The position numbers were made by a program, and so were the translations under genes. The notes beneath the pieces are model-generated. The model ran no database searches, had not been told where the DNA came from, and saw nothing but the letters and a program-made list of their open reading frames with translations. From assembly GCF_058153355.1 (NCBI RefSeq), contig NZ_CM177019.1: DNA of 64,000 nt. One strand, 5' to 3'. Positions 43,820-54,851 of this stretch are shown one piece after another. Position 1 is the stretch's first letter. Every line of letters starts with the position of its first letter.

Positions 43820-43835
43820 TGTGATTTGCATCACA
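43820..43835. promoter_or_regulatory. CRP-type palindrome TGTGATTTGCATCACA upstream of azuC
   Basis: Perfect TGTGA-N6-TCACA half-sites about 85 bp upstream of the azuC ATG. Confidence 0.6.
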
Positions 43836-44951: not shown

Positions 44952-45747
44952 ACCTAATATCCTTATATCCAGAAGTGGAGAGGTGCAAGATAAATCAAAA
45001 CACCATAATTACTGTTTGCAGAATAATTCCTTTCTGCCGGTCCGAAATGTGATCGTGGAGTCAATTCTGACGATGATCTGAAATAAGAATAACGTCTGAA
45101 CGGGTATAAGAAAATGCTTAAATCATCAAGTTTATATATTTTTACATTTCATTGATGAAATCAATGTAACTGCAATGAATTTTAATGATGATGCTTTTTG
45201 TATCTTGTTGATATTAATAGGGGGATTTGAATTCATGATGAAGAAATGATTTTTTAAAACATTTTTTCATTTTTGCGATATGGCTCTCAGTATACGTGTT
45301 CTGTTAATTAATGAGCACGGTGATAATTAATGGCGAAATGAATGACGCTCATTTTCCACCTCTTTGAGTTGCGGTTATTACACCATTTCAAAAGCTCAAC
45401 GCCAGGTAATGTGGCCAATTGACTGGTTAAAAAGAAGACGTTCCGCATGGGTACCAAAGACAACAAGGATTTCCAGGCTAATCTTATGGATTAATCTGCT
45501 GCGTGCTCGGTGATTTGTCTGACAAATAAGCTTTTACTTATGTCTTTTCCCGCTAAATTTATGCACGTTCTCACTGTAATTCTGCGATGTGATATTGCTC
45601 TCCTATGGAGAATTAATTTCTCGCTAAAACTATGTCAACACGGTCACTTATCTTTTAGTTAAAAGGTAATGCTTTGTTTTCCGATTAATTTAACGAAAGT
45701 CATTCGTTTTTGCCCTACACAAAACGACACTAAAGCTGGAGAGAACC

Positions 45748-48341: not shown

Positions 48342-51694
<3,353 letters not shown>

Positions 51695-51700
51695 GTGCGG

Positions 51701-52129
51701 TTAATCTCCCGTAAGTGGAACTAACAGCACATCGACCTCACTTGAGGCAATCACTCTTTTCGCCGAGCAGGATGCTCGCGAAAAGAAACTGTGATTGTGA
51801 TTACCGCAAATCACCAAATCGAAATGATGTTTGCGACAAACCTCCAGAATATGTTCGCTTAACTCACCGTAGGCAATAAACGTTTCGTCAACGGGATACC
51901 CCGCATCCTGAATTAACTTATCAAGAAAGCTTTGCGTTTCTTCCTGCATCACGCTGCGTAAATCTTCAAGCATCGGCGCGGCTAATTGATTGTACATTTC
52001 CGGGTCGGAAGCGAGAGTAATTAAACTGATGTGTCCCTTTACTGGCCTGGCGATAGATACCGCTTTTGCTAGCAGTTGCTGACTTTCCGGTGTAACCGCA
52101 ACGGCGACAAGAATATTGCTATAGCTCAT
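51701..52129 (-). CDS. uspC: Universal stress protein UspC
   Basis: 142-aa Usp-family ORF. Confidence 0.88.
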   Translation of the reverse strand: MSYSNILVAVAVTPESQQLLAKAVSIARPVKGHISLITLASDPEMYNQLAAPMLEDLRSVMQEETQSFLDKLIQDAGYPVDETFIAYGELSEHILEVCRKHHFDLVICGNHNHSFFSRASCSAKRVIASSEVDVLLVPLTGD

Positions 52130-52631
52130 AACCTGTTCCTTATTCTGTGAACTTCAGGTGACATTAAAGCTTTACTCCTAATGGAGAATCGACGCAATCC
52201 CAACTCAGTCAAACAGGTAAATATTAGTGTGATTATTAGTAAATACAATTAATCAATCACTCTCGGTGATCATATGATTTCAACTGTAATTATAAGAAAA
52301 TAATGTACTGATTCTCCATATCAAACAAGTGGTTAATATATGTAAAACATTTTATTAACATTAAGTTGATTGTTGCCTTTCTTTGTATTTAATTAGTTTG
52401 TTGTGCGGTAAGTGTCTGTTTAAAAATAGCTTATCGGGTATTGCATTAAAGCAATTATTTATAGCAGATGATTATTTACGGTGAGTTATTTTAACTGTGC
52501 GCAACATCCCATTTCGATTATTCCTGTTTCATTTTTACTTGCTATCGTAGCGAAAAACTTTTTAACAGATTGAAATACACCCAAAACAAAAGTATGACTT
52601 ATACATTTATGTTAAGTAATTGAGCGTTTTG

Positions 52632-52647
52632 TGTGATCTGCATCACA
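52632..52647. promoter_or_regulatory. CRP site TGTGATCTGCATCACA in the flhDC regulatory region
   Basis: Perfect TGTGA-N6-TCACA palindrome about 265 bp upstream of the flhD start; flhDC is a known CRP-activated class 1 operon. Confidence 0.75.
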
Positions 52648-52909
52648 CATTATTGAAAATCGCAGCCCCCCTCCGTTGTATGTGAGTGTAGTGACGAGTA
52701 AAGTTGCGTCGATTTAGGAAAAATCTTAGATAAGTGTAAAGAACCCCTTCTATTTGTAAGGACTTATTAAATCCAAAAAAGGGGCTCTGCCTATTGCAGC
52801 TTATCGCAACTATTCTAATGCTAATTATTTTTTACCGGGGCTTCCCGGCGACATCACGGGGTGCGGTGAGACCGCATAAAAATAAAGTTGGTTATTCTGG
52901 GTGGGAATA

Positions 52910-53260
52910 ATGCATACCTCCGAGTTGCTGAAACACATTTATGACATCAACTTGTCATATTTACTACTTGCACAGCGTCTGATTGTTCAGGACAAAGCGT
53001 CCGCAATGTTTCGTCTCGGCATAAATGAAGAAATGGCGACAACGTTAGCGGCACTGACTCTTCCGCAAATGGTTAAGCTGGCAGAAACCAATCAACTGGT
53101 TTGTCACTTCCGTTTTGACAGCCACCAGACGATTACTCAGTTGACGCAAGATTCCCGCGTTGACGATCTCCAGCAAATTCATACCGGCATCATGCTCTCA
53201 ACACGCTTGCTGAATGATGTTAATCAGCCTGAAGAAGCGCTGCGCAAGAAAAGGGCGTGA
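52910..53260 (+). CDS. flhD: Flagellar master regulator subunit FlhD (116 aa from [15 protein letters not shown])
   Basis: ORF 52901..53260 trimmed to the canonical start. Confidence 0.93.
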
Positions 53261-53262
53261 TC

Positions 53263-53841
53263 ATGAGTGAAAAAAGCATTGTTCAGGAAGCGCGGGATAT
53301 TCAGCTGGCAATGGAATTGATCACCCTGGGCGCTCGTTTGCAGATGCTGGAAAGCGAAACACAGTTAAGTCGCGGATGCCTGATAAAACTCTATAAAGAA
53401 CTGCGCGGAAGCCCACCGCCGAAAGGCATGCTGCCATTCTCAACCGACTGGTTTATGACCTGGGAACAAAACGTTCATGCTTCGATGTTCTGTAACGCAT
53501 GGCAGTTTTTACTGAAAACCGGCTTGTGTAATGGCGTCGATGCGGTAATCAAAGCCTACCGTTTATACCTTGAACAGTGCCCGCAAGCAGAAGAAGGACC
53601 GCTACTGGCATTAACCCGTGCCTGGACATTGGTACGGTTTGTTGAAAGTGGATTACTGCAACTTTCCAGCTGCAACTGCTGCGGCGGCAATTTTATTACC
53701 CACGCTCACCAGCCTGTTGGCAGCTTTGCCTGCAGCTTATGTCAGCCGCCATCCCGGGCAGTAAAAAGACGTAAACTTTCCCAGAATCCTGCCGATATTA
53801 TCCCACAACTGCTGGATGAACAGAGAGTACAGGCTGTTTAA
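53263..53841 (+). CDS. flhC: Flagellar master regulator subunit FlhC (192 aa)
   Basis: ORF with Zn-binding cysteines (CNCCGGNF...CSLC). Confidence 0.93.
53772..53798 (+). promoter_or_regulatory. sigma28 promoter inside the 3' end of flhC, candidate class 3 promoter for motAB-cheAW
   Basis: TAAACTTT-N11-GCCGATAT matches the sigma28 consensus at 7/8 and 7/8 positions. Confidence 0.6.
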
Positions 53842-53865
53842 CTGATACGGTGTGGCGAAACATTC

Positions 53866-53899
53866 CAGCAGCGGTAACGACGTACCGCTGCTTTTTTTT
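53866..53899 (+). terminator. Rho-independent terminator after flhC
   Basis: gcagcggta acga cgtaccgctgc hairpin followed by a T run of 8. Confidence 0.75.
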
Positions 53900-53967
53900 C
53901 CCCCAATCGCGCGTTAACGTCTGACGACTGAACATCCTGTCATGGTCAACAGTGGAAGGATGATGTC

Positions 53968-54851
53968 GTGCTTATCTTATTAGGTTACCTGGTTGTTCTC
54001 GGTACAGTTTTCGGCGGTTATCTGATGACCGGTGGAAGCCTTGGAGCACTCTATCAACCCGCTGAACTGGTGATTATTGCCGGTGCAGGGATTGGGTCGT
54101 TTATCGTCGGCAATAATGGCAAAGCGATTAAAGGCACGCTGAAGGCGCTGCCGTTGCTATTTCGTCGCTCCAAATATACCAAAGCAATGTATATGGATCT
54201 GCTGGCTCTGCTTTATCGGTTGATGGCGAAATCGCGGCAGATGGGGATGTTTTCGTTGGAACGCGATATTGAAAATCCCCGTGAGAGCGAGATCTTCGCC
54301 AGCTACCCACGCATCCTTGCGGATAGCGTCATGCTTGATTTTATCGTCGATTATCTGCGCCTGATTATCAGCGGTCACATGAATACCTTCGAAATTGAAG
54401 CCCTGATGGATGAAGAGATTGAGACGCACGAAAGCGAAGCAGAAGTCCCGGCGAACAGTCTGGCATTGGTCGGGGACTCACTTCCGGCGTTTGGTATTGT
54501 CGCGGCTGTGATGGGGGTCGTTCACGCGTTAGGTTCAGCCGATCGTCCTGCCGCCGAGCTGGGGGCGCTTATCGCACATGCGATGGTGGGGACTTTCCTC
54601 GGTATTTTATTGGCTTACGGATTTATTTCCCCATTAGCGAGTGTTTTACGTCAGAAAAGCGCCGAAACCAGCAAAATGATGCAATGCGTCAAAGTCACAC
54701 TGCTTTCTAATCTGAACGGTTACGCACCGCCTATCGCCGTTGAGTTTGGTCGCAAAACGCTCTATTCCAGCGAACGTCCGTCGTTTATTGAACTGGAAGA
54801 GCATGTGCGTGCGGTGAAAAATCCGCAACAACAGACGACAACCGAGGAAGC

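Follow-up and report, generated by a model that had tools for sequence, protein, structure and literature searches.

The flhDC regulatory region of an Escherichia coli genome: an uninterrupted uspC-flhD interval upstream of a rare FlhC variant

The 780 bp between uspC and flhD (52130..52909) in the 64,000-nucleotide stretch of DNA analysed here (the window) very probably represent the wild-type, uninterrupted regulatory region of flhDC, the flagellar master operon of E. coli. The region is colinear with the allele found across the species, contains no insertion sequence (IS) or IS remnant, and both sites targeted by IS elements in K-12 are empty. An IS-free flhDC region is in itself already known and ordinary. 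New relative to the initial annotation are figures for the E. coli population, in which the IS-bearing K-12 state is the exception, the polarity of a variant in the CRP site, and a linked substitution in FlhC (R39C).

The uspC-flhD region lacks insertion sequences

The region is bounded on one side by uspC (51701..52129, minus strand), a 142-aa ORF for universal stress protein C whose product shows three amino-acid differences from that of K-12 and which is annotated in the corresponding place in both MG1655 and strain 2020CK-00188. Preceding uspC in the window are araH, otsB and otsA, all on the plus strand. On the other side, flhD (52910..53260, plus strand) is intact, starts with the ATG at 52910, and encodes a protein identical to FlhD of K-12. 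It is followed by flhC (53263..53841, plus strand), an intact reading frame with the single substitution R39C, and then by motA, motB and cheA, also on the plus strand. Comparison of ORFs with annotated homologues gives the gene order uspC/flhD/flhC/motAB/cheAW, the same as that annotated for MG1655 and 2020CK-00188, and the region thus sits between divergent uspC and flhD, with flhC-motAB-cheAW beyond, as expected for the flhDC control region. Over 6.8 kb, the window and 2020CK-00188, its nearest complete genome, show 18 differences, seven of which fall within about 100 bp at 49262..49363 (the 3' end of araH and the araH-otsB spacer); this clustering suggests a small recombination patch.

The initial annotation described the region as long (about 780 bp) and AT-rich, and both descriptors hold. 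Its exact length is 780 bp, and its G+C content is 34.5% compared to 50.0% for the whole window, with a minimum of 25.5% in 200-bp windows. Among all 780-bp stretches of the 64 kb, 0.19% are equally AT-rich, and nearly all of them overlap the uspC-flhD region, which is also among the three longest ORF-free gaps of the window; these measure 771-796 bp, compared to a median gap of 36 bp. Similar in size and composition is the divergent ftnB-araF gap at 44952..45747 (796 bp, 35% G+C).

MG1655 was stated in the initial annotation to carry an IS in this interval, and IS1H is indeed located there. This element (768 bp; NC_000913.3 1978503..1979270) lies between flhD and uspC and is flanked by an 8-bp direct duplication, CATAAATG. 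When IS1H and one copy of the duplication are removed, 779 bp remain, and these can be aligned with the window over their full length, 33 substitutions and a single 1-bp indel being the only differences. The sequence flanking IS1H is homologous to that of the window, in which the IS1 target CATTTATG is present once; IS1 and the duplication are both missing, and MG1655 differs further in having a derived TCACG in the CRP site (see below). Fourteen other E. coli alleles, sampled across the range of identity, measure 779-780 bp and are colinear with the window region, and alignments of the window region with IS-free alleles contain no indel larger than 1 bp. The initial annotation had proposed such alignments, with MG1655 and with IS-free isolates, as a check on its claim; they show no insertion, no IS-terminal repeat and no remnant.

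Both sites at which insertions have been seen in K-12 strains are intact and single-copy in the window. The IS1 target CATTTATG, which is the IS1H site of MG1655, lies at 52604..52611 (-107 to -100 relative to the inferred start of flhDC transcription), immediately followed by the IS5 hot spot, TTAA, at 52612..52615 (-99 to -96). An occupied version of the latter is observed in EV36, where the IS5 junction reads ATGTTAA|GGAAGGTGCG. The same TTAA serves as target in the IS5-activated alleles of W3110, MC4100, DH10B, RP437 and MC1000, but in the window it is unoccupied. More broadly, the window carries no IS with a target-site duplication in the interval from about -96 to -476, where an IS-activated allele would have one.

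Could the region instead conceal something smaller, such as a piece of an IS, a miniature element with inverted repeats or a mobile insert of another kind? A repeat search of the region returned inverted repeats of 10-22 nt with 76-100% complementarity, all short and at chance level, and these are the sole formal hints of such an insert. Blastn searches (word size 7) of the region against copies of IS1 and IS5 gave chance matches of 9-18 bp alone (E >= 0.7). Nothing in the region matches the terminal-repeat queries for ten IS families common in E. coli at up to 25% mismatches, so that neither an IS remnant nor a solo terminal repeat is found. A scan of 51500..54200 against Rfam at E <= 1 matched no family; evidently, the antisense RNA AsflhD and the flhD leader are without a matching Rfam model.

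Copy number argues in the same direction. Among 5,426 complete E. coli genomes, 5,421 have the region, with a median of one copy and a maximum of two per genome, whereas a 35-bp IS1 end, used as a positive control, is found at six places in the median genome and at as many as 59. A common mobile-element remnant within the region would have been apparent from this comparison. The region is also colinear, at 73-88% identity, with its counterparts in other Escherichia lineages: its length is 777-780 bp in the three for which a uspC gene was located, and colinearity with the window holds for E. albertii and E69. End-to-end colinearity with IS-free alleles points the same way. We therefore regard a hidden insert as virtually excluded, and a hidden IS remnant as already refuted at the resolution of the tools used. 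The initial claim that the region contains no IS is thus borne out by colinearity with MG1655 minus IS1H, by the lack of IS1 or IS5 similarity, and by the lack of IS terminal repeats.

Interrupted and intact regions among E. coli genomes

The upstream DNA of flhDC in K-12 is a documented hot spot for insertions of IS1 and IS5 that raise motility (PMC5100188, PMC5493358, PMC5289928, PMC3688515), as the initial annotation had it. [quoted passage not shown]

To quantify interrupted regions, we used a 501-bp core query (52200..52700) and joined matching pieces lying no more than 750 bp apart. Because of this joining distance, an insertion the size of IS1 splits the query into two places. The core query matched 5,582 places in 5,419 complete genomes, meaning that 163 genomes (3.0%) have a split region and about 97% have an unsplit one. 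A query for the IS1/flhD junction of the MG1655 type found a full-length match in at most 89 genomes, and one for the junction of IS5 at TTAA, in the orientation of EV36 and W3110, in 66 genomes. These two historical insertions hence explain at most 155 of the 163 split regions. Among the 45 strains listed as carriers of the IS5 junction, almost all are K-12 laboratory strains; they include W3110, MC4100, DH10B, BW2952, MC1061, HMS174 and EV36. These data show that the IS-free state is the norm for the species rather than a feature of one strain. By the same token, the IS-bearing K-12 reference is the exception: nearly all interrupted genomes match one of two insertions, and the listed carriers are almost all K-12 laboratory strains.

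Several individual genomes show other kinds of interruption. In E. coli BS-04, from chicken, the 501-bp core is found in two pieces that together span 1,043 bp (NZ_CP172819.1 1947062..1948104), implying an insertion of about 540 bp in the flhDC upstream region of this strain. Two further interrupted genomes came from a separate spread sample of matches to the full region. In E05, a urine isolate, IS1 takes the place of all sequence between a point about 220 bp into the region and a point within tar, flhDC-motAB-cheAW included; in EV36 mutant 5a, IS5 sits at the TTAA hot spot, and flhD together with the 5' part of flhC is lost beyond it. Both are IS-mediated deletions that start inside the uspC-flhD region.

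Colinearity of the region extends over its whole length in the great majority of genomes, with 100% coverage and 95-100% identity in 5,271 of 5,421. Three complete genomes have an identical region and essentially all others are 95-99% identical, but only 15 are at least 99% identical. These numbers might suggest that the regional allele is unusually divergent. We rejected this idea, since flhC-motB of the window is equally rare, with 20 genomes at or above 99% identity; the haplotype thus reflects a rarely sequenced lineage and not an exceptional region.

The closest parallels are the IS-free natural isolates and the IS-free K-12 stocks (such as BW25113 and the poorly motile stocks of MG1655). 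With these, the window shares the flanking genes, the length (780 versus 779 bp), the empty IS targets, the position of the CRP site, the promoter block and the ends of the leader. It differs from them in being a rarely sequenced haplotype with four unique positions and a -10 variant shared with its closest relatives. The unique positions are 52229, 52322, 52436 and 52545, where the base of the window is seen in no other of the 15 alleles compared.

CRP site, promoter and leader

A predicted cAMP-CRP site, TGTGATCTGCATCACA, lies at 52632..52647, with both half-sites at consensus and its centre at 52639.5, or -71.5. The pattern TGTGA-N6-TCACA occurs twice in the 64-kb window against 0.06 occurrences expected, and one of the two is this site. 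The other, TGTGATTTGCATCACA at 43820..43835, maps by comparison with MG1655 to the yecR-azuC intergenic region, about 40-50 bp upstream of the azuR/azuC start; azuC is known to depend on CRP, and the position of this second core fits such dependence.

In K-12, the base equivalent to 52647 is G (TCACG), versus A in the window (TCACA). An exact 59-mer containing the perfect site is present in 3,838 of 5,361 genomes (72%), and TCACA is found in all five of the other Escherichia lineages examined (E. albertii, E. whittamii, E1V33, E69 and SCPM-O-B-8794); across the lineages compared, the half-sites are invariant. On the basis of these two distributions, the perfect site is both the majority form and the ancestral one, and the TCACG of K-12 is a derived form. 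The initial annotation had the region retaining a perfect CRP palindrome at 52632..52647. The perfect palindrome is there, but the polarity relative to K-12 needs to be reversed, K-12 being the strain whose site has changed.

Promoter elements were assigned relative to a transcription start at 52711, which we infer from two independent and concordant anchors. The first is the place of the TTAA, at -99 to -96 (PMC5100188); the second is the 198-nt leader of K-12, lengthened by the one extra T that the leader of the window has, at 52772, compared to MG1655. The K-12 figure is taken from the MG1655 annotation, where AsflhD ends at 1,978,395, 198 nt upstream of the ATG. With this start, the leader (5' UTR) of flhDC in the window would be 199 nt long (52711..52909, plus strand). 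The putative -35 element, TTGTAT (52676..52681, plus strand), is weak, with three of six positions at consensus, and lies 17 bp upstream of the putative -10 element, TAAAGT (52699..52704, plus strand), which reads TACAGT in K-12. A homologue of AsflhD is predicted on the minus strand at 52711..52931, by position from MG1655 b4839 and PMC9600491.

A scan for consensus promoters and terminators did not call the flhD promoter, because its -35 matches at only three of six positions, and returned three promoter-like hits on the minus strand, fewer than the mean of 3.8 for shuffled sequence. A weak -35 that escapes such a scan fits what is expected of an activator-dependent promoter. In this respect, the window resembles class I CRP-dependent promoters, in which CRP sits near -61.5, -71.5 or -82.5: a consensus site at -71.5 is combined with a weak -35, although the spacing in the window depends on a start transferred from K-12, and binding and activation by CRP are predicted.

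Soutourina and colleagues are reported to have placed the CRP site of K-12 flhDC at -71.5 in 1999. The spacings in the window, with the CRP centre near -71.5, a leader close to 198 nt in length (the start being transferred from K-12 by homology) and TTAA at -99 to -96, agree with those of K-12; for the TTAA, the K-12 position is that given in PMC5100188.

Several blocks are invariant or nearly so across the genus Escherichia: the segment from about -160 to -88, which holds both IS targets, the CRP half-sites, the block CTCCGTTGTATGT, and the region around the start. The -35 lies within CTCCGTTGTATGT, which does not vary among the ten Escherichia sequences compared. At the two ends of the leader, the first ~30 nt and the last ~90 nt are likewise invariant or nearly invariant across the genus. 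A comparison of 85 distinct Enterobacteriaceae leaders gave the same picture, with the two ends conserved and the segment from +31 to about +110 hypervariable.

Against this background, the window region differs from that of K-12 at 34 positions (4.4%), compared to 0.9-3.2% in the flanking features. These differences include one in the -10 (52701), one in the spacer (52685) and nine in the leader (52743..52791). It is conceivable, then, that the window carries a functionally distinct cis allele, in which the TAAAGT -10, the consensus CRP site and a stronger leader hairpin alter the level of flhDC expression or its catabolite dependence relative to K-12. Besides the elevated divergence, this idea draws on the observations that the -10 and spacer variants are common only to the closest alleles (WR14-2 and FDAARGOS_1371), that the K-12 CRP half-site is imperfect, and that the leader is predicted to fold more stably than that of K-12 by 4.9 kcal/mol. 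However, all four bases occur among Escherichia lineages at the third position of the -10 (52701), which is thus weakly constrained, the consensus CRP site is the majority and ancestral form, and the leader differences fall within the segment that is hypervariable in Enterobacteriaceae. More generally, the regulatory-looking differences from K-12 sit at weakly constrained positions. The equal rarity of flhC-motB indicates a rarely sequenced lineage, and among natural isolates the activity of PflhD is little correlated with motility (PMC5289928). We consider a distinct cis allele unlikely, and favour the view that the region is an ordinary wild-type one; the 34 differences, including those in the -10, spacer and leader, may nonetheless make the amount of expression different from that in K-12. 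We also considered the -10 variant as an up-promoter mutation and found this idea unsupported, given that all four bases occur at 52701 in the genus.

The minimum-free-energy folds of the two leaders share the same architecture, at -58.5 kcal/mol for the window and -53.6 kcal/mol for K-12, with z-scores of only -1.3 and -1.0. In the middle of the leader, a small hairpin is predicted at 52744..52784 (plus strand), with a 6-bp stem formed by 52744..52749 and 52779..52784 (+34 to +39 and +69 to +74). The stem reads CCCCUU/AAGGGG in the window; its third pair is C-G there and A-U in K-12, with a C/U mismatch in most other alleles, and E. whittamii and E1V33 have GCAUCA/UGAUGU at this position. Among 13 Escherichia sequences, 85.9% of the cells of the stem can pair, compared to 56-65% when the partners are slid, and four of the six pairs change on both sides. 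One caveat here is that the structure was specified by hand and that the 13 sequences are a small and related sample. RNAalifold, applied to the 5' halves of the same number of Escherichia leaders, recovered the 5'-terminal hairpin alone and not the one in the middle. We note the middle hairpin as a side observation and build no claim on it.

FlhC R39C and the output of the operon

Compared to its counterparts in K-12 and in the nearest complete genome, and to chain E of PDB 2AVU, FlhC of the window has a single difference, R39C, caused by a C to T change at 53377 (codon 53377..53379, TGC instead of CGC). R39 is part of an RGRLI motif, and residue and motif alike are invariant in all 75 FlhC sequences from the Enterobacteriaceae loci fetched. 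Residues R37, R39, K42 and K45 of FlhC form a basic patch required for DNA binding; the double mutant K42E/K45E and the quadruple Glu mutant both fail to bind DNA, and R39 alone is not among the mutants described (Li et al., PMC3510510).

The substitution is rare but real. A 59-mer with the TGC codon was found in none of 5,219 and none of 5,306 complete E. coli genomes in the two sequence backgrounds tested. Taken alone, these zero counts might suggest a private variant or an error. We rejected this possibility since the exact R39C protein is present on 33 contigs, versus at least 1000 for the wild type, and occurs in several haplotypes. Six R39C loci that were fetched represent at least four unrelated haplotypes from draft assemblies, with 58-88 differences from the window in 3.6 kb, and one of them uses the codon TGT. 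The variety of haplotypes and the TGT codon indicate that R39C arose repeatedly.

These observations raise the possibility that the cis region is native and the output of the operon is weakened downstream, with R39C removing a positive charge from the basic patch of FlhD4C2 and leading to poor class 2 activation and weak or no motility. The invariance of R39, the loss of DNA binding in the Glu mutants, the absence of the substitution from K-12 and the nearest complete genome, the absence of the TGC 59-mer in both backgrounds from the complete genomes, and the recurrence of R39C are in line with this idea. Yet the published mutants combine several residues and never change R39 singly, and Cys is a milder replacement than Glu. 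R39C may also belong to a larger set of rare variants that are tolerated or do little harm, as the FlhC cluster comprises 2,287 sequence variants, and several other changes of one residue reach similar frequencies (44, 24 and 22 contigs, compared to 33). In addition, C-to-T transitions can recur without selection, and the base may have been miscalled in the source of the window, even though the allele is real elsewhere. We regard this scenario as plausible but hold it with clearly less than even confidence, and assign a similar weight, about that of one case in three, to the narrower prediction that R39C measurably weakens class 2 activation. More tentative still is the proposal that R39C is a recurrently selected, natural attenuating allele of the flagellar master regulator, and that the strain is poorly motile despite its intact promoter. 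If it were true, R39C would be the point-mutation counterpart of the flhDC deletions and IS insertions that switch motility off.

For the region itself, a wild-type and uninterrupted flhDC control region remains the best explanation, and its likely mode of action can be sketched from homology and the literature. A weak sigma-70 promoter (-35 TTGTAT, -10 TAAAGT) would start transcription at 52711 and would depend on cAMP-CRP, bound at the consensus site centred at -71.5, for class I activation. The long AT-rich DNA upstream would carry sites for repressors and nucleoid proteins that keep expression low and conditional; regulators acting upstream of flhDC in K-12 include H-NS, LrhA, OmpR, RcsAB and others (PMC5493358). 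In K-12 laboratory strains, IS1 or IS5 at around -100 would separate this upstream DNA from the promoter and raise motility. With no IS in place, flhDC of the window should be transcribed conditionally and respond to catabolites, like its counterpart in most natural isolates. In its conserved 5' and 3' segments, the leader of 199 nt probably retains the targets of CsrA and small RNAs.

The initial annotation went on to expect normal control of class 1 regulation. Part of this expectation stands, in that the cis region looks wild type. However, the cis region by itself does not reveal whether control is normal, because the trans-acting regulators lie outside the window and FlhC carries R39C. 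With this substitution, class 2 activation may depart from the native state even if transcription does not. The class 1 step is probably transcribed as in the native state, but what the master regulator delivers may differ, and motility is not predictable from the intergenic region alone.

The consequence for annotation is small: the region has the common, uninterrupted form of the flhDC control region known from textbooks. Besides that of a typical IS-bearing K-12 reference, two common assumptions call for small corrections. Since the consensus CRP site is ancestral and is carried by the majority of genomes, work in K-12 on how catabolites control flhDC may underestimate the affinity of CRP in natural strains. 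And an intact promoter alone does not predict motility, as here the linked flhC has a rare substitution in its DNA-binding patch.
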